Shown: positions 7,927-22,301 of the stretch, piece by piece
Layout of the letters: each line of letters begins with the position of its first letter
How positions within the stretch are numbered: position 1 is the first letter of the stretch
DNA from: an uncultured Bacilli bacterium
Lineage (GTDB): Bacteria > Bacillota_I > Bacilli_A > RF39 > UBA660
NCBI GenBank assembly: GCA_947632415.1
Contig: CANRPB010000002.1
Location: forward strand, 1-56,064
Direction: 5' to 3'
DNA length: 56,064 nt
The notes under the pieces: model-generated
Databases searched by the model: none
What the model was told of the DNA's origin: nothing
What the model saw: the letters and a program-made list of their open reading frames with translations, nothing else
Made by a program: the position numbers and the translations under genes

Positions 7927-8018
7927 TTTATTTTACCTCGTTATCCACATAATTAAAAGTAAAATAACCATTGCTAATAATACACAACCATCAAAAGCAA
8001 CAAGAAATTTTAATAAAG

Positions 8019-8183
8019 TCATGGAATAATACCTCCCAATTTTTTATCCAGAATAATAACCTGATTTTCTATTTTATTTCCATCACCAGAACTAACAATA
8101 GTTCCAATAATATCATATTTATCAAACGTTTTATCCAACAGGTTAACAAGTTCATTTTTAGTTATTCTTCTTGTACTTACCAT
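8019..8183 (-). CDS. Small hypothetical protein (54 aa, below the ORF-track cutoff)
   Basis: Hand translation MVSTRRITKNELVNLLDKTFDKYDIIGTIVSSGDGNKIENQVIILDKKLGGIIP; start 1 nt after the upstream stop. Confidence 0.4.
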   Translation of the reverse strand: MVSTRRITKNELVNLLDKTFDKYDIIGTIVSSGDGNKIENQVIILDKKLGGIIP

Positions 8184-8184
8184 T

Positions 8185-8523
8185 TTACAACCCTCCTATT
8201 AAGATATTTGCTATTTTTGTTAAATACACCTTATCTTTTTCCTTTAACCTGTCGTACAAATGGAATCCTGTACTTCCATCAAAGTCATACATACAGTAAT
8301 AGTATTGTGTTTGTTTCAGTTCCAATTTATCCATTTGCTTTTGATATTTTACCAGTTGTTTACAAACAGAGTCAAATACTTTATCTGTTATAATGGAAGT
8401 GTCTAACACATAATACAAAATGCTGTGTACAATCACAAACCTTTGTAACCATTCTACAATCATAATATCTGTCCAATAGGTATAAGGCATTTTATCAAAA
8501 TTAAAACCTTCTTTATTCTCCAT
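8185..8523 (-). CDS. Hypothetical protein (112 aa from MENKEG)
   Basis: GGTGGTAAAAAGG before the ATG; no motif. Confidence 0.55.
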   Translation of the reverse strand: MENKEGFNFDKMPYTYWTDIMIVEWLQRFVIVHSILYYVLDTSIITDKVFDSVCKQLVKYQKQMDKLELKQTQYYYCMYDFDGSTGFHLYDRLKEKDKVYLTKIANILIGGL

Positions 8524-8693
8524 CCTTTTTACCACCAAATTTGTCTAGTATTTCAAATAACACATATAAATCACAAATACCAGTTAATACCATAAAAATA
8601 ATTACACATGTTAAACCAAATATCTCCATTTTATTATACCTACCTTTCTTAAATAAGATCTTATATATTATATATAATATTTATTATATTATG

Positions 8694-8722
8694 ATTATAA
8701 CACAAAGTAAAATTGTTGTCAA
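8694..8722 (-). promoter_or_regulatory. Sigma-70-type promoter TTGACA-N17-TGtTATAAT (full consensus, extended -10)
   Basis: Minus strand reads TTGACAacaattttactttgtgtTATAAT. Confidence 0.75.
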
Positions 8723-8872
8723 CTATTTTATTAAAAATTTTTTATATTTTTTTAACCCATTCCATAAGGCCGTATTTTGCCCATATAGGGATTTTATGGT
8801 TGTTGTGGATATTTATACCACCAATGGATTTCAAGTGGCTATTTGGGGCTGCTGGTGGGTCTGGTGGGTATC

Positions 8873-9714: not shown

Positions 9715-9890
9715 AACCCCATATCCTCTATTTCCTTTACCCATCCTTCTTTAACCCATTTTTCAGGGCACATTCCTTTATAACATTCAAACCTGGAATA
9801 GCCTTCCTTATATTTACCATAAACATGTGGTGGAGCTGTTTCCGTTGGAATAAATACATGTCCTTGTTTTGCATAAATATATTTACACAC
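9711..9890 (-). CDS. Small Cys-containing protein (59 aa, GTG start, below the ORF-track cutoff)
   Basis: Hand translation ...GHVFIPTETAPPHVYGKYKEGYSRFECYKGMCPEKWVKEGWVKEIEDMGL; GGAGGG 10 nt upstream; ATGA coupling to the next gene. Confidence 0.35.
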   Translation of the reverse strand: MCKYIYAKQGHVFIPTETAPPHVYGKYKEGYSRFECYKGMCPEKWVKEGWVKEIEDMGL

Positions 9891-10206
9891 TTTTCTTAAC
9901 CCTCCTTAAATATTCAATACATTTTTGTTTGGAACTGAATACAGGATAACTAAAACCAAACCTTGGAGCTTTTTCACTATTTAAATATTTTTCATAAAAG
10001 AAACCAAATTCATAAAGTTTTGCATTACTTCCAAATATTTTATCCTTATCCAATTCCATTTTTACTTGATTAAAATTATACATGATACTGTCTTCAAATA
10101 TATTTATTTTATTTATAATACCAGAAAATACAACAATATGTTTCTTTGGATCTCCATACACAAAATATATTTTATCACCAATATCCAACTTGGTTTCTAT
10201 CTTCAT
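9883..10206 (-). CDS. Hypothetical protein (107 aa)
   Basis: ORF, coupled starts; no motif. Confidence 0.55.
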   Translation of the reverse strand: MKIETKLDIGDKIYFVYGDPKKHIVVFSGIINKINIFEDSIMYNFNQVKMELDKDKIFGSNAKLYEFGFFYEKYLNSEKAPRFGFSYPVFSSKQKCIEYLRRVKKSV

Positions 10207-10499
10207 AAAATTTCCTCACAAAATATTTCCTTCATTTTATTTACCGTTTCAATAAATGCATTATACCTTTTTGTAAAATCCTGTACATTATAAATATTTT
10301 CATGTTCACCAGATGTAAGAAAACCATTCATCTGTTTATTTGTATAAATAAATTCATATTGTTCATCTTGGTATACCTTAACAATAATATCTTCTTCTGT
10401 ATCAATAAACATAAATCCAGGTCTACTTTGTGAAAAATCTACATACAAATAATCGAACCCTTTAAAAGCCATAAATTCAATAATGCTTATTTTTGCCAT
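10203..10499 (-). CDS. Hypothetical protein (98 aa)
   Basis: ORF, no motif. Confidence 0.55.
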   Translation of the reverse strand: MAKISIIEFMAFKGFDYLYVDFSQSRPGFMFIDTEEDIIVKVYQDEQYEFIYTNKQMNGFLTSGEHENIYNVQDFTKRYNAFIETVNKMKEIFCEEIL

Positions 10500-10515: not shown

Positions 10516-11376
10516 TTATATTTTTACCCTTCCCATACCAATGTTATAACAAGCATCACGCATTGGACATTTCTCAGCCATTTTACAAGTTGATGAATCA
10601 CATTCCTTATGTCGAGGAACCATTTTATGTTCTTCCTTAAATACATTATAATAATACTGGATTGATTCACAACGTTCTATAAATGGAGCTACCGTTTCAG
10701 GCTCATAATCATAAACAAATGTTTTAAATTCCTGAGCCCCTTTATCATCACATAAAACAAATCCCTTTTTATAGTCATTTGATTTTGTATTTAACACCCC
10801 TTTTGCTTTTTGACACAAATACATATACCATTGTAATTGTTTGTGTCCTGAGGGGTGTGAAGCCATTTTCTTAAACTGGAATGGATTTACCGATTTAATT
10901 TCAACCACCATTGCACCATCATAAAATTCAGGAATTTTACAAACAACATCAGGGGTATAGCTTATTTTGAAATCATCATCAAACCGTGTATAGTCCAATG
11001 TTTTTGCTTTTGCATATCCAGCACGGATAAATAACCTCTGCCATTTTTCATGGATTGCATTACCCTCTGCAAATATACGCATTAAACTTACAGGCAATTG
11101 TTCCCCTTGTAATTGTTTGTACAATAAACTTAAAACCTGTTGTCTTACACAAAACTGTTTATCCGATACAATAATTGCAGAAGCATGAAGTCCAATTCTT
11201 TCCGTTGTATCAGAACCACGTGTCATTACTTGTTTTACAAATTTTGTTTCTTCATCAATGTTTTTATCTAAGTAAAACATTTTATTTAATATGCCTTCAA
11301 GTTTTGCTGATTCAGATGATTGTACTTTAGAACCAGTCTTTACAGCATCGTTTTTAATATCATTTATTATTCCCAT
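10516..11376 (-). CDS. Cas4/AddB-type PD-(D/E)XK exonuclease with Cys cluster
   Basis: YTPDVV...VVEIKS nuclease core; N-terminal FCVRQ Cys plus C-terminal CDSSTCKMAEKCPMRDAC cluster. Confidence 0.65.
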   Translation of the reverse strand: MGIINDIKNDAVKTGSKVQSSESAKLEGILNKMFYLDKNIDEETKFVKQVMTRGSDTTERIGLHASAIIVSDKQFCVRQQVLSLLYKQLQGEQLPVSLMRIFAEGNAIHEKWQRLFIRAGYAKAKTLDYTRFDDDFKISYTPDVVCKIPEFYDGAMVVEIKSVNPFQFKKMASHPSGHKQLQWYMYLCQKAKGVLNTKSNDYKKGFVLCDDKGAQEFKTFVYDYEPETVAPFIERCESIQYYYNVFKEEHKMVPRHKECDSSTCKMAEKCPMRDACYNIGMGRVKI

Positions 11377-11809
11377 TATTAGCCTCCCATACAACACCTT
11401 TATGTGATATTACTTTTTGTATTCCAGAGTTAGCTAACATTCGTTTACATATCGGACAAGGTTCAACATCAATATACATATTTACCTTATCACCACTGTC
11501 CTCATATCCAGATAAATACATAACCGAACCAATCATATCCTTTCTGGAAGCAGATAACATTGCATTTTGTTCAGCATGAACGGAGCAACAATCAGAATAG
11601 TCACCAGAGTTATGTGGTTTATTCAATCTTTTACATTGACCCAAATCACAACAATTTATCCCCCCCCTTGGAGAACCATTAAATCCTGTTGCAATTATTT
11701 CATCATTCTTTACAATGATACATCCATACTTACGTTTTAAACAACTACTTCTAAGTGATACTGAAAATGCTATTCCTAAATAATAATCAGTCTTTGATAT
11801 TCTTTTCAC
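11360..11809 (-). CDS. dCMP (deoxycytidylate) deaminase
   Basis: CSVHAEQNAM and EPCPICKRM = HAE / PCxxC zinc motifs of the cytidine/dCMP deaminase family. Confidence 0.85.
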   Translation of the reverse strand: MKRISKTDYYLGIAFSVSLRSSCLKRKYGCIIVKNDEIIATGFNGSPRGGINCCDLGQCKRLNKPHNSGDYSDCCSVHAEQNAMLSASRKDMIGSVMYLSGYEDSGDKVNMYIDVEPCPICKRMLANSGIQKVISHKGVVWEANNGNNK

Positions 11810-12116
11810 AGTACTCCTTCATCCTTTCCAACATTTCCTCTTGTTCCAAGGATAAATCAAAATCCAGTTCATTTAATTCAAAAGCTTTATCAATATACCA
11901 CTTTGCTTTTTTTAAATCCTCTATTCCATTTTTACTTTTGTATCTCCAAGTATATTTAAAAGCATTACACAAACAAAAATTTATAACAGCCATAGAACCA
12001 AAAACAACTTCCATCATTTCAATACATTCTAATGAACAGTTTTCATAATGCTTAGGATGATTTACATTATCCCGTTCATCTTCATCTTTATAATCAAAAT
12101 AACCAGCACCAATCAC
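11787..12116 (-). CDS. DUF3310-like phage protein
   Basis: NHPKHY...NAFKYTWRYKSKNGIEDLKKAKWY matches the DUF3310 signature as I recall it. Confidence 0.55.
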   Translation of the reverse strand: MIGAGYFDYKDEDERDNVNHPKHYENCSLECIEMMEVVFGSMAVINFCLCNAFKYTWRYKSKNGIEDLKKAKWYIDKAFELNELDFDLSLEQEEMLERMKEYCEKNIKD

Positions 12117-13063
12117 TCTTCCTCATCCTCCATTTCAAATTCTTTTGGAACACGTTTGCCAAATTGTTCTGCACGTTGTTTCATTATCTCTTTTCTTATA
12201 CTCGGAACATCATCAAAGGAAACAAAGCCACGGTCAAATATTAAAGGAATTTCACATTCACCCATCGGGTTACATACTTTTGATTTAACAACTTTACATT
12301 TCATTATTAAACCAATCTTTTCAGTGGTTGCAGAATTATGTGGATCTTTGTTTGGTATTTCAATCCATGACTTCCTTGCAACCTGAATACGTAAAGAACA
12401 AGCATGTTTTAATTTACGTCCACCAGGAGTATCAGTTTTTTCACCAAACATCATTGCATTCATTTTATCCCTTACCTGATTGATAAATATAACCGTTGTC
12501 CCTGTTACCTCAATAATTTCCTCAATCGTTGGTAAGTATTTGTTCATCAATCGTGCAGTACCACCAATACGTTGTTCTTCAATAGAATCCTTTTCAGCAG
12601 ATTTCAAAACCTTTTCCGCATCTTCCTTAGGAACCATACTTGGAACACTATCAATACCAATTAACGGAATACCTTCATGTGCAAATTTAATTGTTTTATT
12701 GAAAGCATCCTCCCCATACTTCGCACGATAAATCAACATTTGCTTTTGTCTGTTACCAAATACCTTTGCCCTTGCTGCATCAAACGTTCCTTCAATTGGA
12801 ATATCCAAACACAAACTATGCAAACCACATAAGTGATATAACAATGTTGTTTTACCAGAACTTTCAGGACCAAATATTTCAACTACCCTACCTTCAGGCA
12901 TTCCACCACCAATGATTGCATCAAGGTCTTCTATTCCAGTACTCCAACGATTAATTTTTAAATTTGCATTTTCTGAACCAATTGTATAAATACTACCTTT
13001 TCCTTCCTTTTTATTTATCTGATTGCACAATTGGATTATTGCTTCCTTGTTCGTCTTTGCCAT
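12113..13063 (-). CDS. recA: RecA-family recombinase
   Basis: VVEIFGPESSGKTTLL Walker A, LIGIDSV, GGTARLMNKYL; RecA-like length. Confidence 0.8.
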   Translation of the reverse strand: MAKTNKEAIIQLCNQINKKEGKGSIYTIGSENANLKINRWSTGIEDLDAIIGGGMPEGRVVEIFGPESSGKTTLLYHLCGLHSLCLDIPIEGTFDAARAKVFGNRQKQMLIYRAKYGEDAFNKTIKFAHEGIPLIGIDSVPSMVPKEDAEKVLKSAEKDSIEEQRIGGTARLMNKYLPTIEEIIEVTGTTVIFINQVRDKMNAMMFGEKTDTPGGRKLKHACSLRIQVARKSWIEIPNKDPHNSATTEKIGLIMKCKVVKSKVCNPMGECEIPLIFDRGFVSFDDVPSIRKEIMKQRAEQFGKRVPKEFEMEDEEE

Positions 13064-13331
13064 TTTCACCACACCACTTTCTTTTTAAATATACTTCATG
13101 ATTCAAAACAAAACATCTAACAGAATTATTAAATCCATGAAATTTTATAGTGTTCATAATACACCTTGCCATTGAATCACCATTATCATAATGGCACTCC
13201 GTATCTTTAACTTTTACACAATCATTATCTGACTGAATAAAATTATCCAAGATACGTAACACTTCACCTTTTTTCTTTTTCATCTTTCTACCAGCATTCA
13301 AATCCAGCTCATCATAATTAACTTTTTCCAT
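13011..13331 (-). CDS. Hypothetical protein (106 aa)
   Basis: ORF overlapping the recA start by ~50 nt; no motif. Confidence 0.5.
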   Translation of the reverse strand: MEKVNYDELDLNAGRKMKKKKGEVLRILDNFIQSDNDCVKVKDTECHYDNGDSMARCIMNTIKFHGFNNSVRCFVLNHEVYLKRKWCGENGKDEQGSNNPIVQSDK

Positions 13332-13339
13332 TACTAACA

Positions 13340-13780
13340 TTATTTAATTACCTCCCCAATAACATCCTGTACTTTATCTCTTACCTTAACCCATTCATTA
13401 AATGTAATACCATCACAATCATATTTTTCCTGCAGATTATAAAAACACTGTAACAAATATCGTTCCGTGTGCCAACCAGCAAATAACTCATCATGTGTTA
13501 TTGCAGAACCAACCTGCATTTCCTCAGGATTAACATAATCATAAATCTTTTTCCTTGATTCATCGGATATATTAAAACCACGATTAAACATTTCATTTAC
13601 AACCATACAGCAATAGTTATAAAAGTGGGATTTATTATAATCCATTACTTTATTTACAAGGATATGATTAGGCGTTCCATGTTTCATAATGTTTACAGCA
13701 ATTGCACAACATTCACGCCACTGTGCTAATAACTGTTTATCTGGAAGTACATCAATTAAATCTTTATGCCACATTCTCAT
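13340..13780 (-). CDS. T4 endonuclease V (DenV)-like pyrimidine-dimer DNA glycosylase family protein
   Basis: LIDVLPDKQLLAQWRE and EMFNRGFNISD parallel T4 DenV L..EL.DQHLMAEYRE and ECLKRGFNIKD. Confidence 0.55.
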   Translation of the reverse strand: MRMWHKDLIDVLPDKQLLAQWRECCAIAVNIMKHGTPNHILVNKVMDYNKSHFYNYCCMVVNEMFNRGFNISDESRKKIYDYVNPEEMQVGSAITHDELFAGWHTERYLLQCFYNLQEKYDCDGITFNEWVKVRDKVQDVIGEVIK

Positions 13781-13968
13781 TATACATCCCTCCCCATTGA
13801 ATGATACATCTCAGAAACCTTCAAATACATTTCCGCAAAATCATCAAGACGTGCATTCAATTCATTAAGAATCAAATCATGTGGCATAAGTGACAATATC
13901 AATGCTTTATCATCGTCACTCGCATCATTTACAAAATTTACTATTGCTTCGTTTTCCATTTTACCCAT
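13780..13968 (-). CDS. Hypothetical acidic protein (62 aa)
   Basis: GGAGGGTGACAAA RBS context, downstream of promoter 14013..14041. Confidence 0.5.
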   Translation of the reverse strand: MGKMENEAIVNFVNDASDDDKALILSLMPHDLILNELNARLDDFAEMYLKVSEMYHSMGRDV

Positions 13969-14012
13969 TTTGTCACCCTCCTAGGTTTTTACATTTTTTT
14001 ATTTACAAACAT

Positions 14013-14406: not shown

Positions 14407-17160
14407 CTATTTAAATGTTCTTGCCAACAGTGCACTGTTATATTTTGTTACCCTACTGATAAAAGTCTTTTTATTAAATTCAGCTGCACCATATTCTTTT
14501 ATAATTCTTATTACACGTTCATTCACAACTCTTGATTTACAACGATCATAAAAATTATCAAAAGAAGTAAATATACCATTGGCAATTCTTTCGGCAACAA
14601 TTTCCGTTGCAGCTTTTTCACCAACACCTTTTAATTCAGCCAAACCACGTTGCAAACACTCTTCCCCATCCACTTTTCTTATTTTCATTTTAATATCAGA
14701 ATAATTTATATGCGGCAAGAATACAACCAAGTTATCTTGTACAGCTAAACTACAAAACTTATCATAATCATCTTCGTTTGGTGCATATTTAATTTTACAG
14801 AACCAGAATTTTGTTGGGTGATACACTTTATAATAACACTCTTCAACACCAATCAATGAATAACCAACAGCGTGTCCTTTATTAAATGAATATACCAACA
14901 TAGTATCAAATACTTCCTGTGCTTGTTGTTTTGACAAACCATTCTTTAAAGCACCTTTTACAAATTTTTCATTCAATTCCTTTTTGTTCCGTTCAAATTC
15001 AGCTTTTGCATCTTCACTTTGTGATTGTCCACCAATCATCTTCATTACCTTATCAGCATCCCCCCATGTCATATTACCAATGTTTACACATATCTGTTGA
15101 ATTTGTTCCTGATATATAACAGCCCCATATGATTCCTGTGTATAATTATAATAAACACTTTGTTTTGCTTCTTCCAAATTAAATTTATTTTCTGCATATG
15201 TTTCAGGCATTTTCATTTTCAAAGGGCCTGGCCTATTCATTGCATTAGCAGCCACAATATCATCAAAGGAACTACAATTTATTTTTACCAAAATATCACG
15301 TACTGCTTTTTTATCAAACTGGAATATTCCAATGGTATCCCCATTTTCAAACCTGCTTAATATTTTATCATCTTTTACAATATCATCATAATTAACTTTA
15401 ACACCAGTCTCTTCCCTTAATTCACCAAGTTCTTCCATTGTATTAAGACCCAGCATATCAAATTTAATTACATGTATATTTTCCATATCGTTCAAATCGT
15501 AATTGGTATATATATCGCCCGACTTATCAATACGCAACGCCGTATAATCCAATATATCCCCACCAGTAACGGCAACACCTGCAGCGTGTGTACCAATGAA
15601 ACGCATTTTCTTATACAGCTTTGTAAAATGTGTCATGATATTATCATATTGTGAATTATACATCCTGGATTCACGGTTCTTTAACAATCCCTCTGCATTT
15701 AAATTTCCATCTTCATCAATATACTCATTACACAACGATTTTATTTTTGCAATTTCTTTTTTGTTATCCGCAACTTCACTCGGGTCAACTTCTTTATCCG
15801 TTGGCAAACCACAAACCTTTGACAAATCATTTATTAAATTATCAACTTTATACAAACCATAACTAGCAATCCTTGCCGTTTTCCCTTTATATTTATTTAT
15901 TACATACTCAATTACTTCATGCCTCCTTGATGTTTCAAAATCCATATCAATATCAGGCATTTTCTTTTTATCCTCACGCAAGAATCGTCTAAAATCCAAA
16001 CCAAACAACAGACTATCAACTTCCGTGATTCCTAACGCATATGCAATCAAACAGTTACAAGCAGAACCACGCCCAGGACCTACATTGATTCCCTGTTTCT
16101 TTGCCCAGTTTACATAGTCCGCAACGATCAAAAAATAATCATGGAAACCTAATGAATTAATTACTTTATATTCATCTTGTACACGAGATATATAATCAAG
16201 TCCTGTTTCTGGATGTTTATGTGTCCACTTCCCACGTTTTGACAATCCCTGTTTTATTTTCTTTTTTATCAATGCATCAGAATCATCACTGAACTTTGGA
16301 AGTAACTGTTGTAAATCTTTAAATATATCATCATCAACTTTATCTTCAATTTCTTTTAAGTTATTTATCATTTGTTTTCCAACACGTTCTACATTTACAA
16401 AATCATCACCATGCATTTTTACAAAACGATTATACAAGTCCTTATCTGACGGCATATAACGTTCCTTATACGTTGCGGCAATATGTTCAATGTCATGTTT
16501 GGATATTTCATGCATTTTCAAATATGTATCAAAATCTTCCTTCCTACCCCTGTGTGAATCGGAAGTCAATATGCATTTCACATTTAATTTTCTACCAATA
16601 TTTATTGCCATTACATTTACTTTTTGTTGCAAACCTAATTCAGATATTTTATATGGTTGTACCTCAATATAAAAATCATCTCCAAAAATATCAACCATCT
16701 TTTTTACAAATTTTTCCGCTTGTTTAATTTTATCATCTTTTAAACATTGTCCTAAATATCCAGCAATACAAGCTGATGTACATATAATTCCTTCATGGTA
16801 TTTTTCCAACATTTCAAATGTCCATATTGGATTATAATATTTTATCTTTTCCCCTTCATATTGTAATTCATTCAAGTTATGATAACCAACATGGTTCTTT
16901 GCAAACAAACATAAATGATAACCCCTGTTTTGTTCTTTATACACAGGTAGGAAATATCCTTCCACCCCAAGTACTGGTTTTATACCAACATCCTTACAAG
17001 CCATATAATGTTGTACCAGTCCATTTGTATTACCATGATTAGAAATGCCTAATGCCGTGTGTCCAAGTTCCTTTGCCAATTTAGCTAACTCTGTTGCTTT
17101 TCCAAAACCATCAAATGTAGAATATTCATCATGTCTATGTAAATCCATACCATCCTCCAT
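14407..17160 (-). CDS. dnaE: DNA polymerase III alpha-type (DnaE-like) replicative polymerase, 917 aa
   Basis: PHP domain DLHRHDEYSTFDGFG and SNHGN; core motifs GPGRGSACNCLIAYALGIT and MPDIDMDF. Confidence 0.9.
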   Translation of the reverse strand: MEDGMDLHRHDEYSTFDGFGKATELAKLAKELGHTALGISNHGNTNGLVQHYMACKDVGIKPVLGVEGYFLPVYKEQNRGYHLCLFAKNHVGYHNLNELQYEGEKIKYYNPIWTFEMLEKYHEGIICTSACIAGYLGQCLKDDKIKQAEKFVKKMVDIFGDDFYIEVQPYKISELGLQQKVNVMAINIGRKLNVKCILTSDSHRGRKEDFDTYLKMHEISKHDIEHIAATYKERYMPSDKDLYNRFVKMHGDDFVNVERVGKQMINNLKEIEDKVDDDIFKDLQQLLPKFSDDSDALIKKKIKQGLSKRGKWTHKHPETGLDYISRVQDEYKVINSLGFHDYFLIVADYVNWAKKQGINVGPGRGSACNCLIAYALGITEVDSLLFGLDFRRFLREDKKKMPDIDMDFETSRRHEVIEYVINKYKGKTARIASYGLYKVDNLINDLSKVCGLPTDKEVDPSEVADNKKEIAKIKSLCNEYIDEDGNLNAEGLLKNRESRMYNSQYDNIMTHFTKLYKKMRFIGTHAAGVAVTGGDILDYTALRIDKSGDIYTNYDLNDMENIHVIKFDMLGLNTMEELGELREETGVKVNYDDIVKDDKILSRFENGDTIGIFQFDKKAVRDILVKINCSSFDDIVAANAMNRPGPLKMKMPETYAENKFNLEEAKQSVYYNYTQESYGAVIYQEQIQQICVNIGNMTWGDADKVMKMIGGQSQSEDAKAEFERNKKELNEKFVKGALKNGLSKQQAQEVFDTMLVYSFNKGHAVGYSLIGVEECYYKVYHPTKFWFCKIKYAPNEDDYDKFCSLAVQDNLVVFLPHINYSDIKMKIRKVDGEECLQRGLAELKGVGEKAATEIVAERIANGIFTSFDNFYDRCKSRVVNERVIRIIKEYGAAEFNKKTFISRVTKYNSALLARTFK

Positions 17161-17247: not shown

Positions 17248-17949
17248 TTAAAATACATCTTTTACATCTTTTTTATAAACGTGCAACGAGAACATTGTAT
17301 GTGTAAAATTACCAACTTTCATGTTACATGCACCAGCAACATATTCAAGAAGTCTAATTGCCAAATATACATCATTTGTAAAGTGTGTGTTAAAATCACA
17401 ACTCCGCATTACATAATGCATATTTAATTTTCCTTCCCTATACTGGAAATTATACCCAAGTGAACAAGGTACTCTTGAAATACCACCAAGTCTATCAGGG
17501 TCAATTGCAGGATTCCAAATCGACAACCACAACTGCCTTGAATCATGGTCCTCACTTAACCTATTTACAATTTTACTTATCTGGTCGTTAAACCAAATTC
17601 TTTCGTTATATGTATATGCCATTTTACCATCATGCAAATACTCATTCCATACATCCTCACGAAGTTTATATGCTTCCCCAGGATTTATAAATTCCGTACC
17701 ATTTCTAAATGGGTCAAACATTCTTTCATCAAATTCTGCATCAGCCCATGGTTGTGTTACACCAGTTATATCACTTGACTTTGCATTCAAAATTGTATAA
17801 CAATAATTCTGAAGTTCCTTTGTTTCATAATCTTCATTTCCTTCAATCTTTTTATCCTGCATTGTTTTAGGTTTTACAAGTATACCCATTTCAGCAAGAT
17901 CCCTTTTTACCTCTTCATATGCTTCTTCCCAATTCATATAAATTCTCAT
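17248..17949 (-). CDS. ThyA-fold deoxypyrimidylate C5-(hydroxy)methylase, dCMP hydroxymethylase-like
   Basis: DSRQLWLSIWNP, VPCSLGYNFQYREGKLNMHYVMRSCDFNTHFTNDVY and SLHVYKKD parallel ThyA/T4 gp42 motifs. Asp lies 11 residues after the RS Arg, where ThyA has Asn177 and T4 gp42 has Asp179. Confidence 0.7.
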   Translation of the reverse strand: MRIYMNWEEAYEEVKRDLAEMGILVKPKTMQDKKIEGNEDYETKELQNYCYTILNAKSSDITGVTQPWADAEFDERMFDPFRNGTEFINPGEAYKLREDVWNEYLHDGKMAYTYNERIWFNDQISKIVNRLSEDHDSRQLWLSIWNPAIDPDRLGGISRVPCSLGYNFQYREGKLNMHYVMRSCDFNTHFTNDVYLAIRLLEYVAGACNMKVGNFTHTMFSLHVYKKDVKDVF

Positions 17950-17950
17950 T

Positions 17951-18631
17951 TTACTTTTCCTCCAGTTCAATATCATCAAACACAACAGGAATTCTATTTT
18001 TTAACTCTTTTAACAACGGTACTGTTACTTCCCTCATTTGTGGATGGGCTGTTTTTGCAACTCTTAATTTAAAGAAATTTCTCCATTCACGATAATTTGC
18101 TGTAATTGTAATTTCAGTCTTTGTACTGTTTGGTAATACAGAACGTGCAATTTGAGAGGTTGCTCCCAGCTCAATCATTTTTAAATAGTGACGTTCAGCA
18201 TCCATCATTGCCTCATTCCACTCTTTTAAAACATTTGCAATATCATAAGAACTCATAGTGGACATTTTACCATCTAACTTCATTCCATTTGTAACATCAA
18301 TCACTGAAATTTCATTACCAAATTTATCATTACTGTAATTACAATACCTTGTACTTTCCTGTGCAAAAGAAGCAATCCTATGTCTTACTAACTCATGTGA
18401 TACACCACGATCAACAATAAATTTAACCGTCAAAGAACTATGTTCAATCATTGCTTCATGTCCACGGTCAATTAACATTTTAACAAACCTTTTTGCACTT
18501 TCCCCATCCTCTGAAATTTTATCTTCGGATTTATAACAAACCCTACCAATTTTTTCAATGTGTTTTAATTCATCAATACCACCATCAGAAATGTTTGATA
18601 AAATTTCATAACCAGCTTTTAAAACTTTCAA
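17951..18631 (-). CDS. thyX: Flavin-dependent thymidylate synthase ThyX
   Basis: RHRIASFAQESTR = ThyX motif RHRxxSxxxxSxR; TTG start 10 nt after AGGAGG. Confidence 0.85.
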   Translation of the reverse strand: MKVLKAGYEILSNISDGGIDELKHIEKIGRVCYKSEDKISEDGESAKRFVKMLIDRGHEAMIEHSSLTVKFIVDRGVSHELVRHRIASFAQESTRYCNYSNDKFGNEISVIDVTNGMKLDGKMSTMSSYDIANVLKEWNEAMMDAERHYLKMIELGATSQIARSVLPNSTKTEITITANYREWRNFFKLRVAKTAHPQMREVTVPLLKELKNRIPVVFDDIELEEK

Positions 18632-18632
18632 T

Positions 18633-19391
18633 TTACCTTTTCCTCCTTTTTGGATTTTCAAAATGTTCCTTTATTGATAATGATTGTATATCAACAGGTT
18701 CATATTTGTCAATACCAAAATATAATCTTTGCATCGTTGCCAATGTCATAAAGGAACTTATTTCACATTTTGTTTTAAAATACCGTGTATAGTCTGCATT
18801 TAATTGTCTTATCCATTGGTGCTCATAATTAAGTTCTTTACGATCAACACCAAAATAATCAAAGAATCCATTTATAAATTTACCACCACAATAGCATTGA
18901 GCCATGAAGAAAATTACATTGCCAATTTCACAACAATCTGGAAGTTCATTCACAAACCGATTTAACATAACCAAATCTGCAGCCATACGCCTTTGTGTTT
19001 CCGTAACACGATAATAAACTTTCATACCAGTCCATGTATCATGTCTACGTTTTCTTGTTAATACAATAGAAATTAAACACGAACCATTATTTCTTTTTTT
19101 ATGTTTAAAATAAAATGTATAAGATAACCCTGATACCTTTTCTAATCCTTTATAGAAATTTTGTAATTCATCATAGTCAATATAAGTGTTTAACAAATGT
19201 CCCCATTTTGATTTCTTATAACCAAAATTAGCAAGGTCCAATGTACACTTTGGAGTTTTACAACCAATCACAACATTTTCTACATAACCAGAATCACCTA
19301 ATACTGTTTGGATTATTTCAGGATGTAATAAAAATTTACGATTTAATTCCAAAAACATTTCATCAAAGTCTTTATATTTTTCTACTAACAT
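18633..19391 (-). CDS. Diverged thymidylate-synthase-fold-like protein, paralog 1 (252 aa), function unknown
   Basis: About half its residues match neighbour 19385..20143 by eye. NNGSCLISIVL and YYRVTETQRRMAADLV align in order and spacing with the ThyA PCH strand and the RSxD...N segment. Confidence 0.5.
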   Translation of the reverse strand: MLVEKYKDFDEMFLELNRKFLLHPEIIQTVLGDSGYVENVVIGCKTPKCTLDLANFGYKKSKWGHLLNTYIDYDELQNFYKGLEKVSGLSYTFYFKHKKRNNGSCLISIVLTRKRRHDTWTGMKVYYRVTETQRRMAADLVMLNRFVNELPDCCEIGNVIFFMAQCYCGGKFINGFFDYFGVDRKELNYEHQWIRQLNADYTRYFKTKCEISSFMTLATMQRLYFGIDKYEPVDIQSLSIKEHFENPKRRKR

Positions 19392-20143
19392 TTCGTTTTC
19401 CTATCCTTGAAATACTCATCAATACTTAACGTATTTGCAGGTAAAGGTGGATATGTTTCCATACCCAACCTCATTCTCTGCATTCTAGCCATTGATTGAT
19501 ATGTTGTGATTCTTGCGCCATCAACAAAACTCCTATTATACGCATCTACCAATGATTTAATCCATGGGTGTGTATAATCCAATGTATCAAATGGAACTTT
19601 GAAATAATCATAGAATCCATTTATAACCATTGCAGAAGTATATGTTTGTGCCATGTAAAATGTTACACGTTCAATTTCACAACATTCAGGAAGTTCTTTT
19701 ATAAAACTATGAATCAGAACCAAATCAGCAGCCATTCTACGTTGTGTTTCTGTTGTCCTGTAAATTACATTACATCTAATCCATTTCTTTTTTCTATCTT
19801 TTCTGGATAACACAATTGCTATCAAACACGAACCATTGTTTATTTTCTTTTGTTTGAAATAATAAGTTAATGATAAACCTGAAGCAGTTTTTAACCGTTC
19901 CCTGAATTTAACAAGTTCATCATAGTCAATGTAATTTCTTAACAAATGACTCCACTTATTTTTCTTATACCCAAAATTACCCAAGTCCAAATTACAGTCA
20001 TATGTTTTACAAGCAATAAATATATTATCCATATAACCAAGAATACCATTTGTATAATCCAACATTTCATATGGATTAGTAAGTATTTCCTGATTAAGTT
20101 TTAAAAACATTTCGTCAAAATTTTTATATTTTCTTACTTTCAA
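19385..20143 (-). CDS. Diverged thymidylate-synthase-fold-like protein, paralog 2 (252 aa), function unknown
   Basis: Shares NFGYKK.KW.HLL..YIDYDEL, NNGSCLI.IVL, YR.TETQRRMAADLV, ELP.CCEI and F.MAQ.Y with paralog 1. Confidence 0.5.
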   Translation of the reverse strand: MKVRKYKNFDEMFLKLNQEILTNPYEMLDYTNGILGYMDNIFIACKTYDCNLDLGNFGYKKNKWSHLLRNYIDYDELVKFRERLKTASGLSLTYYFKQKKINNGSCLIAIVLSRKDRKKKWIRCNVIYRTTETQRRMAADLVLIHSFIKELPECCEIERVTFYMAQTYTSAMVINGFYDYFKVPFDTLDYTHPWIKSLVDAYNRSFVDGARITTYQSMARMQRMRLGMETYPPLPANTLSIDEYFKDRKTKC

Positions 20144-20769
20144 TAATTTGACCTCTGCCTAAATTTATTGACTTGGGATTTCTTTAAATAAACATCAACA
20201 ATTTCATTCTCTCTAAAACATGTGGAGAGTATTGCAAAATAATCAGCCCATACACATCTAAGTTTATGATAAAATTCATTTTTATCTGTAACCATATTTG
20301 TCTGTTTCCATGGTTTATTTTTTAAACAATTACACATCATTCCTAAATCCATAACCAAATCAGGAATCAAACAAAATACTTCCTTTGTTGTTCTTGATTG
20401 TTCATACAATGTGTGAATTAAACTATTATCCATTGGAACATCCCACACAACATCATCAGGACCCGAACCAGACAAAATAGTTAACTCCGTGAGGAAATGT
20501 AAACCATCAATCAATTCTTCCTTAAAATGGGCTTCGTCCTCATAAGCATCTAATGCTTCCCCAACTTCTTCCATGATTCTCCATGAAAAATCCTTTATCC
20601 TTGCCTGACCTCTTTTATCATCCAAATTAACAGGACAGTCTTCCGTTTGTAATAATCCACTTCTTTTTTCAATATCATGGTACTTTTCCATTAACTCTTT
20701 CTGACGATTAAATATTGCAATCAAACCATCACAATCAATTTCCTCTGATACAGCATGTGTTATATTCAT
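20140..20769 (-). CDS. All-alpha NTP pyrophosphohydrolase (dimeric dUTPase / MazG-like)
   Basis: IMEEVGEALDAYEDE and ELIDGLHFLTEL acidic helices typical of the dimeric dUTPase/dCTPase family. Confidence 0.55.
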   Translation of the reverse strand: MNITHAVSEEIDCDGLIAIFNRQKELMEKYHDIEKRSGLLQTEDCPVNLDDKRGQARIKDFSWRIMEEVGEALDAYEDEAHFKEELIDGLHFLTELTILSGSGPDDVVWDVPMDNSLIHTLYEQSRTTKEVFCLIPDLVMDLGMMCNCLKNKPWKQTNMVTDKNEFYHKLRCVWADYFAILSTCFRENEIVDVYLKKSQVNKFRQRSNY

Positions 20770-20771
20770 TA

Positions 20772-21317
20772 TCACGCTTCCTCCGTTCTATTTAATTTTG
20801 ATAATTTTACAATTTGTTCAGGATAATTTCCATCACTAACATTGTTATAATTATATTCACAAATCCTAAAACCATTATCGTTTAACCAGTATGCAAATAC
20901 ATTATATCCATCTATCAAACCTAAAACATTTTCTTTTACACCTTCCATTTGTTCCCTGTCCCCCCAATTTGTAACACAAAACAAACCAGGATAACAAAAA
21001 ACAAATAAATCAACCAGTGAAAGTAAACTCCTCCCTTCAAAACCATTCATAACATCTTCAAACAAATTTTTACCACGCAAAACAGTTCCACAAACACATT
21101 CCTCTATTAAAGGAAACCTATCAAATATGATATTCTGTTTAGAGTTTAAATTTGTTTCCATAAAATCAATGTACTCTTTTGCTGTTTTGTTTGCACCAAT
21201 ACTCTTTGCAATTTCAAACTGATTATAATATCTTTTTATATCATTACACAATGTAGTTTTACCTGAGTTATCACACCCAAAAACTACAATTTTTAAACCT
21301 CTTTCAAAATTTTCCAT
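20772..21317 (-). CDS. P-loop deoxynucleoside-monophosphate kinase (thymidylate-kinase-like)
   Basis: VVFGCDNSGKTTL Walker A, FDRFPLIEE; small kinase size; sits in the nucleotide-metabolism block. Confidence 0.6.
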   Translation of the reverse strand: MENFERGLKIVVFGCDNSGKTTLCNDIKRYYNQFEIAKSIGANKTAKEYIDFMETNLNSKQNIIFDRFPLIEECVCGTVLRGKNLFEDVMNGFEGRSLLSLVDLFVFCYPGLFCVTNWGDREQMEGVKENVLGLIDGYNVFAYWLNDNGFRICEYNYNNVSDGNYPEQIVKLSKLNRTEEA

Positions 21318-21368: not shown

Positions 21369-22301
21369 TTAACCCCAATCATCATCAGAGTCTTCGTCTT
21401 CATCCTCTTCCCAATCATCATGGGCTTTATCATTTTCCTTCAGCAGGTTAATATAATACTTTTCATTCTTTTTCGGAAGTGCCTCAATATCCCTTTCCTG
21501 ACACAGCTTATATAATTCCTTTGCTGTCATATCGGAATAATCCTGCTCTTCCTCCTCATCATCACCATCCCAATCATCCGAAGAATTTTCCTCATCATAC
21601 TCTTCCAACAGATCAATATAATACTTCGGCTTCATCTTAGGTTCTGCTTCTATATCACGTTCCTCACAAAGGTTATACAATTCCCTTGCAGACATTTCAG
21701 AATAATCAAGTTCCTCTTTCTCTTCCTTTGCCTTCTTACTCTTTGTCTTCGGAACATCTTCATCATCATCATTACCGTACTGTCCAGCATGTTCATCAGG
21801 ATATGCCTTATCCAGAATTTTCAAAAATGCTGATTTACTATACGGCTTTGCTTTTTCATTCCTAAATTTATTCTTATCCATTGGAACAACACTGAATGTT
21901 TTATTCTGCTGTTTACCAGTTACACTAATAACAAAATCACGATCAAGCAACGTTCCATAATTTTCATACATTGCTGCAATTGCTCCCAATGGTGAACAGT
22001 TATTCATGGGGTACATCAGAATCTTAACTTCCTTGGATTCATAATCCCATACAGACCATGCATATTGCGAACGTGTTCTAATTCCATCTTCCTCACAATA
22101 AATACAATTCCTACCAAAAATTTCCTGACACGGTACGTTAATATTTGCTTCAAAATTATCATGGAAGGTTACCTCAAATCCATCTTCCATATCACTTAAA
22201 AATCTTACCCTTTTCTTATCTCCATCCTTGAAGAAAATAAACTTCCCTTTGTTTTGCCCAGACCTCTGAGCATCCTGTTTAATTTTGTCCAATAATCCCA
22301 T
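21369..22301 (-). CDS. ssDNA-binding-type protein (gp32-like Zn-ribbon/OB candidate) with two HeH repeats and acidic tail
   Basis: PCQEIFGRNCIYC Cys cluster; duplicated SEMSARELYNLCEERDIEAEPKMKPKYYIDLLEE and SDMTAKELYKLCQERDIEALPKKNEKYYINLLKE; ends DSDDDWG. Confidence 0.45.
   Translation of the reverse strand: MGLLDKIKQDAQRSGQNKGKFIFFKDGDKKRVRFLSDMEDGFEVTFHDNFEANINVPCQEIFGRNCIYCEEDGIRTRSQYAWSVWDYESKEVKILMYPMNNCSPLGAIAAMYENYGTLLDRDFVISVTGKQQNKTFSVVPMDKNKFRNEKAKPYSKSAFLKILDKAYPDEHAGQYGNDDDEDVPKTKSKKAKEEKEELDYSEMSARELYNLCEERDIEAEPKMKPKYYIDLLEEYDEENSSDDWDGDDEEEEQDYSDMTAKELYKLCQERDIEALPKKNEKYYINLLKENDKAHDDWEEDEDEDSDDDWG

Follow-up and report, generated by a model that had tools for sequence, protein, structure and literature searches.

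Bacteriophage T4 converts deoxycytidine (dC) to hydroxymethyl-dC through a pathway made up of the gp56 deoxycytidine triphosphate (dCTP) hydrolase, or dCTPase, the gp42 deoxycytidine monophosphate (dCMP) hydroxymethylase, the gp1 deoxynucleoside monophosphate (dNMP) kinase, the Cd deaminase and Td. The DNA of Xanthomonas phage XP12 carries 5-methyl-dC, and the flavin-dependent dCMP 5-hydroxylases (RB69 gp48, DLP3 gp80 and HY126 AfhB; structures 9iqu and 9iqc) are small phage homologs of the thymidylate synthase ThyA that have no C-terminal tail and carry Asp at position 177. The enzymes of thymidine hypermodification, which include a deoxyuridine monophosphate (dUMP) hydroxymethylase, the 5-HMUDK kinase and aGPT-Pplase, have uracil as their target (Asn177) and remodel the base within DNA that has already been replicated. 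To our knowledge, the known pre-replicative pyrimidine modifications of phages all start from a single enzyme of the thymidylate synthase superfamily. Here we analyse a stretch of 56,064 nucleotides (contig CANRPB010000002.1 of assembly GCA_947632415.1; hereafter the window), which is the whole of a ~56-kb siphovirus-like contig, and within it an operon that encodes a tail-less ThyA homolog (H) together with two paralogous proteins (XA and XB) of a family that we call X. Our reading, to which we give a probability of roughly 0.55, is that the operon represents a conserved phage cassette that re-routes the dC pool before replication, a C5-modified dC then being built into phage DNA.

A six-gene operon in a siphovirus-like contig

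The window has a G+C content of ~31% and carries nearly all of its genes on the minus strand. At 17248-21317, six co-oriented and tightly packed open reading frames (ORFs) follow each other on that strand in the order K-P-XA-XB-ThyX-H, with a DNA polymerase gene directly downstream and a dCMP deaminase gene 6 kb downstream (lengths in amino acids, aa):

20772-21317, minus strand: K, P-loop (deoxy)nucleotide kinase, 181 aa (Walker A motif GCDNSGKTT, PHROG 761, Foldseek)
20140-20775, minus strand: P, all-alpha nucleoside triphosphate (NTP) pyrophosphatase of the dUTPase_2/MazG type, 211 aa (PF08761, PHROG 12184)
19385-20143, minus strand: XA, X-family protein with a predicted, divergent ThyA fold, 252 aa (AlphaFold/Foldseek, hhalign; PHROG 34294)
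18633-19391, minus strand: XB, second X-family paralog, 252 aa (53% identity to XA)
17951-18661, minus strand: ThyX, flavin-dependent thymidylate synthase, ORF of 236 aa (PF02511, TIGR02170, RHRxxS)
17248-17985, minus strand: H, tail-less ThyA homolog, ORF of 245 aa (PF00303, residue mapping)
14407-17160, minus strand: DnaE-type DNA polymerase, directly downstream of H (tblastn to DnaE-like polymerases)
11360-11809, minus strand: dCMP deaminase (PF00383 at 2e-16, PHROG 174 at 4e-39, HAE and PCxxC zinc motifs)

Neighbouring genes in the operon share 4-7 bases at their ends, a sign of possible translational coupling. An earlier note on this DNA had listed the same contiguous operon and the deaminase, and we found each of these genes where it had placed them. 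It had also taken the phage for a siphovirus, and the tail genes agree: genes for tube, tape measure and Dit are present and no sheath gene was found among the window ORFs scanned, a combination that fits siphovirus morphology.

P matches PF08761 (dUTPase_2) with an E-value of 1.3e-9 and 39 bits, against a gathering score of 22.9, and PHROG 12184 ('nucleotide pyrophosphohydrolase') at 4.7e-36. The T4 gp56 dCTPase falls in the same Pfam family (25.4 bits), and P is predicted to be a pyrophosphatase of dCTP and also of deoxyuridine triphosphate (dUTP). For K, Pfam yields P-loop matches only, and PHROG 761 ('thymidylate kinase') matches at 3.9e-9. Its AlphaFold model, with a predicted local distance difference test (pLDDT) of 91.9, brings up thymidylate kinases and deoxynucleoside kinases in Foldseek at E ~1e-5, the best template-modelling (TM) score, 0.72, being that of SPbeta YorR (3kb2); we predict that K is a kinase for a modified dNMP. 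A sequence search of the PDB with K and P brought up nothing beyond P-loop or coiled-coil noise. ThyX is clear-cut: it matches PF02511 at 1.5e-46, passes the NCBIfam equivalog cut-off (TIGR02170, 137 bits against 87.9) and has the motif RHRIASFAQESTR, with RHRxxS present as RHRIAS; its probable start is the TTG at 18631, which is preceded by a ribosome-binding site. The dCMP deaminase is predicted to supply it with dUMP.

H matches PF00303 in Pfam at 2.5e-19 and has the motifs VPCS, MRSCDFNTHFTND and SLHVY. Its probable start is the ATG at 17949, where its homologs begin and which has a GGAGG 8 nucleotides upstream, giving a protein of 233 aa. We mapped its residues onto Escherichia coli ThyA, whose numbering is used for ThyA homologs throughout; the register agrees between phmmer, run against sequences from the PDB, and MAFFT, run on H with E. 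coli ThyA, T4 gp42 and the XP12 ThyA homolog. H retains Trp80, Tyr94, Arg126, Cys146, Arg166, Ser167, Asp169, His207 and Tyr209, and differs from E. coli ThyA by Asn177 to Asp, Leu143 to Arg, His147 to Ser and Arg127 to Gln. The earlier note had located the Asp at the Asn177 position by counting 11 residues from a conserved Arg; phmmer matches to E. coli ThyA structures confirm it, as do two MAFFT alignments in which E. coli ThyA and T4 gp42 are included. In ThyA, N177D switches specificity from dUMP to dCMP (PMC13326640, PMC8670742). H ends only 8 residues past SLHVY and so has no C-terminal tail; in ThyA this tail closes the site off for hydride transfer, and T4 dCMP hydroxymethylase does without it (PMC6400193). 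These features are shared by the closest 120 homologs of H, all of which have Asp169, Asn176 and Asp177 and stop 8 residues past SLH(V/I)Y, and 108 of which have SRVPCS.

H also scores far below every NCBIfam thymidylate synthase equivalog cut-off (79 bits for the best model, against 174.6). Because it has Asp in place of the canonical Asn177, falls so far short of the equivalog scores and lacks the tail, H is, judged by its sequence, not a plain thymidylate synthase, as the earlier note had argued; we predict that it is an enzyme modifying dCMP at C5. With T4-type dCMP hydroxymethylases it shares the PF00303 family, the catalytic Cys (VPCS), Asp177 (TND) and the missing tail. Its best PDB sequence matches by phmmer are the HY126 dCMP hydroxylase structures 9iqu and 9iqc. 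All tested 5-hydroxy-dCMP synthases are marked by D169N (PMC13326640), whereas H keeps Asp169 (RSCD), as do all 120 homologs, and we rejected the idea that H is such a synthase. Nor does H fit a dCMP methyltransferase of the XP12 type, in which Asp177 goes together with a ThyA-like tail for hydride transfer: H has the Asp and lacks the tail. XP12 is likewise a siphovirus, with an Asp177 ThyA homolog beside a dCMP deaminase, but its homolog keeps a long C-terminal tail (289 aa) and has a dihydrofolate reductase (DHFR) gene next to it; no X-family gene is annotated in XP12, in which no search for one was made.

Taken as a gene set, the locus resembles T4 in its PF08761 pyrophosphatase, tail-less Asp177 ThyA homolog, nucleotide kinase, dCMP deaminase and separate thymidylate synthase, so that in silico it reproduces the gp56/gp42/gp1/Cd/Td logic proposed in the earlier note. 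It differs from T4 in that the thymidylate synthase is ThyX rather than ThyA, in that a single compact operon holds the genes, in a siphovirus that has a DnaE polymerase, and in that one or two divergent X proteins, predicted to have the ThyA fold, are obligate in the cassette. Also unlike T4, and as the earlier note had observed, the window has no glucosyltransferase: Pfam/PHROG-type profile scans of ~57 window ORFs detected no glycosyltransferase, DNA methyltransferase or other transferase. The arabinosyl- or glycosyltransferase cluster that goes with the flavin-dependent dCMP 5-hydroxylases is absent too. Thymidine hypermodification has in common with this locus a ThyA homolog, a P-loop kinase and enzymes that rework C5, but X hits no Pfam family and the fold of K is that of a nucleotide/nucleoside kinase. 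In the literature that we searched, no description was found of two such dissimilar ThyA-fold proteins being obligately paired.

The X family

XA and XB are 53% identical over 251 residues. Neither has a Pfam or NCBIfam hit, and both match PHROG 34294, whose function is unknown. Across 148 X-family members Pfam returned no hit of any family, PF00303 included, and an X profile found no match among PDB sequences even at E <= 10. The family is large: an exhaustive profile search gave 363 clusters at 50% identity with E <= 1e-3, and 119 with E <= 1e-10.

The relationship of X to ThyA emerged from structure prediction. An AlphaFold model of XA built from a 40-sequence alignment has a pLDDT of 93.9 and a predicted TM score of 0.91. 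Of its top 50 Foldseek matches in the PDB, 49 are structures from the thymidylate synthase superfamily, the remaining one being a designed hydrolase; all have a probability of at least 0.93, with query-normalised TM-scores of 0.33-0.48. The HY126 dCMP hydroxylase (9iqu/9iqc, E 2e-6) leads the list, followed by T4 dCMP hydroxymethylase, MilA and then many ThyAs. In a viral structure library the best matches are uncharacterised proteins (TM 0.64-0.74), one of them from Pseudomonas phage PMBT14, with thymidylate synthases ranking after them. The fold evidence comes from the XA model, and XB is brought in through its 53% identity. The two paralogs, which the earlier note had left as unknowns, are thus placed by the model in the thymidylate synthase fold; their membership of the superfamily is by predicted fold only, and the operon would hold three ThyA-fold proteins in addition to ThyX.

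Among 134 diverse members the conserved residues of the family are Tyr59, Lys63, Leu67, Tyr71, Phe96, Cys106, Arg129, Glu132 and Asp140 (87-100% for Y59, K63, Y71, C106, R129, E132 and D140), and XA and XB both retain the complete set. In two hhalign runs, a wide X-family alignment matched ThyA alignments with a probability of 65-67% and E ~5e-5, with catalytic residues in register as follows (X residue, then E. coli ThyA residue):

Tyr59: Tyr94
Cys106: Cys146
Arg129: Arg166
Glu132: Asp169
Asp140: Asn177
Gln166: His207
Tyr168: Tyr209

The spacing from Arg129 to Asp140 is 11 residues, the same as that counted in H. Usable matches between X and ThyA profiles came solely from the wide alignment; with a narrow X-family alignment, HMMER found no match to H, ThyX or T4 gp42, and hhalign gave a probability of 0.4%. 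The model and this register together point to XA and XB as members of an uncharacterised branch of ThyA-fold proteins with a cytosine-type active-site constellation. The earlier note's suggestion that the paralog pair is the place to look for an extra step is supported. The D169N mark of 5-hydroxy-dCMP synthases is absent here as well, the residue aligned to position 169 being Glu132.

That so deep a family conserves its Cys/Arg/Glu/Asp set at 87-99% argues that X proteins are catalytic, and on the same ground we rejected the view that X is an inactive pseudo-enzyme. A heterodimer of H and X with shared arginines was set aside, X offering no Arg126/127. Pfam contains aGPT-Pplase families, and we rejected the identification of X as such a thymidine hypermodification transferase on the lack of any Pfam hit in 148 members. 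XA and XB form separate orthologous groups (60 clusters lie nearer to XA and 22 nearer to XB), so by these sequence groupings the duplication is old and has been maintained. One X-family gene, at 13259-13999 of Clostridium phage CPAS-15 (MN417334.1), carries the GenBank label 'colanic acid biosynthesis glycosyltransferase', probably in error, since sister phages have identical genes called 'hypothetical' and the fold is ThyA-like.

Distribution and neighbourhood of the cassette

The cassette is not peculiar to the phage in the window; it is widespread and occurs in cultured phages. Among 24 other loci that we compared, 23 have the order K-P-X-(X)-H, and the remaining one (L010, Phage DP SC_6_H4_2017, MT121964.1) has P-X-X-H with no K detected nearby, so that K comes first in 24 of the 25 loci when the window is included. 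Since the order recurs in this way, the arrangement is far beyond chance. Carriers comprise the Clostridium perfringens phages CPD4 and P21, Pseudomonas phage PMBT14, 13 IMG/VR contigs, metagenome contigs down to 37% identity and a human-gut phage that turned up in over 250 data blocks. All of these relatives are visible at the protein level only; when the region was compared by megablast with 50,697 phage records, no match appeared at the DNA level. We found no report of this cassette in literature searches that included CPD4, Clo-PEP-1, CPAS-15, P21, MT121960/MT121964 and PMBT14.

In PMBT14 the gene order is thymidylate kinase, NTP pyrophosphohydrolase, X-like protein (profile hidden Markov model E-value 2e-32), ThyA-like protein, dCMP deaminase and DNA polymerase I. 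The ThyA-like gene shares the Arg143/Asp177/Ser205 signature, and the dCMP deaminase comes directly after it. In most related loci a DnaE polymerase adjoins H, and among the loci compared ThyX lies inside the cassette solely in this window. Several lineages have a second X copy, either beside the first or after H; in the IMG/VR loci L018 and L020 this copy is 232 aa long and sits between H and the DnaE polymerase, immediately ahead of the latter, and from its position the X duplication there is rearranged or arose independently. The most distant variant of the cassette, in L003-L005, has two ORFs (111 and 226 aa) where the window has XB and ThyX; in L003 they lie between X (8001-8765) and H (9808-10482), and they have no Pfam or X-family match.

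Outside phages the X family is essentially absent: of 185,579 species genomes one gave a hit, and this lies on a contig of phage size (54 kb) in a Lachnospiraceae metagenome-assembled genome. Searches of IMG/VR for distant X relatives, made with the wide alignment and with two distant members, yielded none, for want of a conserved stretch or of confirmation by tblastn.

In MT121964.1, at 11428-13048, an IspD-family cytidylyltransferase gene (PF01128, 1e-26) and a LicD-family phosphotransferase gene (PF04991, 8e-39) come directly after P/X/X/H and are followed by a DNA polymerase. These two genes suggest that the cassette product may bear a hydroxyl group open to further decoration. From the gene families the arrangement looks like decoration of a hydroxyl-bearing DNA base that depends on a cytidine diphosphate (CDP)-alcohol and would add ribitol-, glycerol- or choline-phosphate; we found no description of CDP-alcohol-type decoration of a DNA base in the literature searched.

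Three further genes lie around the operon in the window:

11787-12116, minus strand: small DUF3310/T7 gp1.7-like protein, 109 aa (PHROG 236 at 2e-27 and PHROG 1689 at 5e-25, 'nucleotide kinase')
13340-13780, minus strand: protein with weak similarity to T4 endonuclease V/pyrimidine-dimer glycosylase (PHROG 1183 at 2e-4)
21369-22301, minus strand: single-stranded DNA-binding (SSB)-like protein with repeats (SSB-like N-terminal half; PHROG matches)

The first of these extends into the beginning of the dCMP deaminase gene and, by its PHROG matches, may encode a second nucleotide kinase; whether it belongs to the pathway is uncertain. The glycosylase-like gene sits between the polymerase and RecA genes. 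It also occurs in a related gut phage (L007-L009, ~12665-13078), where it matches Pfam Pyr_excise; a possible DNA glycosylase beside a predicted base-modification cassette may merit attention. The SSB-like protein has two tandem repeats of ~40 residues (one containing DYSEMSARELYNLCEERDIEAEPK and then YYIDLLEE, the other DYSDMTAKELYKLCQERDIEALPK and then YYINLLKE) set in very acidic linkers, and in PHROG the repeat stretch hits families of endonuclease VII and of Arc-like repressors (phrog_3281 and phrog_390).

A proposed pathway and its alternatives

In the pathway that we propose, P would hydrolyse dCTP (and dUTP) to the monophosphate. H, in which the Asp that specifies cytosine and the complete Cys/Tyr/Arg/Asp169 catalytic set are both present, would attack C6 of dCMP and transfer the methylene of methylene-tetrahydrofolate to C5 without reduction. 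X would be a second Cys-dependent, cytosine-type ThyA-fold enzyme working on the same nucleotide pool; most plausibly it would take the product of H, add its Cys at C6 and exchange or process the substituent at C5. K would phosphorylate the modified dNMP, a host nucleoside diphosphate kinase would add the last phosphate, and the resulting modified deoxynucleoside triphosphate would need to be accepted and incorporated by the DnaE polymerase of the phage. Meanwhile the dCMP deaminase and ThyX would keep deoxythymidine triphosphate (dTTP) supplied. The analysis itself gives the gene identities, the folds, the active-site residues, the synteny and the restriction to phages; from the predicted enzymes we infer the substrates and products at each step, and likewise the order H then X and the completeness of the replacement.

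For X itself we offer a more tentative proposal, possible but rather doubtful as it stands: that it is a new catalytic branch of the ThyA fold, carrying out an undescribed reaction at C5 of a deoxycytidine nucleotide and yielding an unreported cytosine derivative. This could be, for example, a Cys-driven reaction in which another nucleophile takes the place of the hydroxyl in 5-hydroxymethyl-dCMP, or one that uses a cofactor of neither the folate nor the flavin type. If so, X might act together with the Arg143/Asp177 tail-less ThyA clade in abundant human-gut phages, C. perfringens phages and PMBT14.

Several observations weigh against the proposed pathway in whole or in part. In T4-type hydroxymethylases the residue three positions ahead of the catalytic Cys (Cys-3), an Asp or Glu, activates the substrate water, D145N being inactive, and a Ser or Thr stands at Tyr-2 (PMC6400193). 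H differs from T4 at both places, with Arg at Cys-3 (SRVPC) and Tyr at Tyr-2 (AYTYN), and hydroxymethylation is consequently not predicted for it by the published signature. The earlier note's description of H as hydroxymethylase-like therefore stands as regards Asp177 and the missing tail and fails as regards this signature. By sequence the cassette seems to work like the T4 system, yet by this signature H lies outside the T4 dCMP hydroxymethylase family; it falls in a distinct clade for which the published signature rules give no product, and 5-hydroxymethyl-C as the product is a guess, not an inference. The register of X with the ThyA catalytic residues depends on a weak profile match, sequence similarity to ThyA being marginal (hhalign probability 65-67%), and the claim of a ThyA fold leans mainly on a predicted structure with TM ~0.45 to solved structures. 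In the hhalign alignment, which is of low confidence in these places, X has no equivalents of the phosphate-clamp residues Arg126' and Arg127' (DSRR aligns to a gap or to Ser-Gly) and no evident folate-stacking Trp80 or Trp83, with no conserved Trp at the Trp80 position. No report of base analysis or of modified bases was found in the searchable literature for any cassette-bearing phage.

The last point on this side concerns restriction sites. Over the whole window GATC occurs 38 times against 123 expected (z = -9.1) and CCGG twice against 33 expected (z = -6.9), so both are strongly under-represented; ATTAAT and GAATTC are likewise low, and PMBT14 too avoids GC-rich palindromes. This suggests that the DNA of cassette phages is still exposed to type II restriction, and the avoidance of GATC and CCGG argues against blanket protection, making a bulky, fully protective group on every C unlikely. 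Palindrome statistics are an indirect test of protection, however, in which a small modification, a partial one or none would give the same picture.

The strongest alternative, which we nevertheless consider unlikely, is that the product is plain 5-methyl-dC as in XP12, with H as a dCMP methyltransferase and X as an accessory or redundant paralog. The XP12 ThyA homolog, annotated as 'thymidylate synthase', likewise has Asp177 and a polar residue at 143, H is without the water-activating Asp of the hydroxymethylases, and so small a modification is compatible with persisting avoidance of GATC and CCGG. Reductive methylation, however, needs a tail for hydride transfer (PMC6400193), which all 120 H homologs lack, whereas the XP12 enzyme has its long tail and a neighbouring DHFR, and no DHFR was found in the window. 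An obligatory X with its catalytic residues intact would also be left unexplained.

Similarly improbable is ordinary nucleotide supply with no base replacement at all, P being a house-cleaning dUTPase, K a deoxythymidine monophosphate (dTMP) kinase, and H and X a back-up synthase or non-catalytic regulators. Databases do label H 'thymidylate synthase' and K 'thymidylate kinase', restriction-site avoidance is the pattern of an unmodified genome, and a genome of ~31% G+C makes a high demand for dTTP plausible. Against this stand an Asp177 that is fixed in all 120 homologs, a change known to switch ThyA from dUMP to dCMP, the presence of ThyX in the same operon, the large shortfall of H from the best thymidylate synthase cut-off and the conserved Cys/Arg/Glu/Asp set of X, which argues for catalysis.

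We give still less credit to a flavin-dependent dCMP 5-hydroxylase of the RB69 gp48 or HY126 AfhB kind among the ThyA-fold proteins, X being the likeliest candidate, with 5-hydroxy-C or a derivative as the base. This idea draws on the HY126 enzyme being both the solved structure closest to the X model and the source of the PDB sequences closest to H, on the lack of an obvious folate-stacking Trp in X and on the related phage MT121964, which adds transferase genes needing a hydroxyl acceptor; but the diagnostic D169N (PMC13326640) is absent, H having Asp and X Glu at that position, and the TM-scores of the X model to 9iqu are just 0.44-0.51. Least probable of all is a thymine analogue as the final base, made by H as 5-hydroxymethyl-dCMP, deaminated to 5-hydroxymethyl-dUMP and perhaps processed further by X: the cassette is consistently accompanied by a dCMP deaminase (next to H in PMBT14, nearby in the gut phages and in the window), but X has the cytosine-type Asp and not Asn, the window phage keeps ThyX and so still makes dTMP, and P resembles the T4 dCTPase family.

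Pre-replicative modification of dC by the cassette would be of interest in several respects. The cassette pairs two very different members of the ThyA fold, one of them assigned by its model, neither of which fits a published product signature, and it is a testable lead to new nucleotide chemistry and possibly to a new DNA base. The X family, with its hundreds of clusters, has no Pfam model and no solved structure, and its members are usually labelled 'hypothetical'. Because the carriers include cultured phages (the C. perfringens phages CPD4, P21, Clo-PEP-1 and CPAS-15, and PMBT14), in addition to a very common lineage of human-gut phages, the finding is worth experimental follow-up; the C. 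perfringens carriers are under study for biocontrol in poultry. The answer bears on how phages with this cassette resist restriction and CRISPR, how their DNA behaves in sequencing and how their genomes are annotated.

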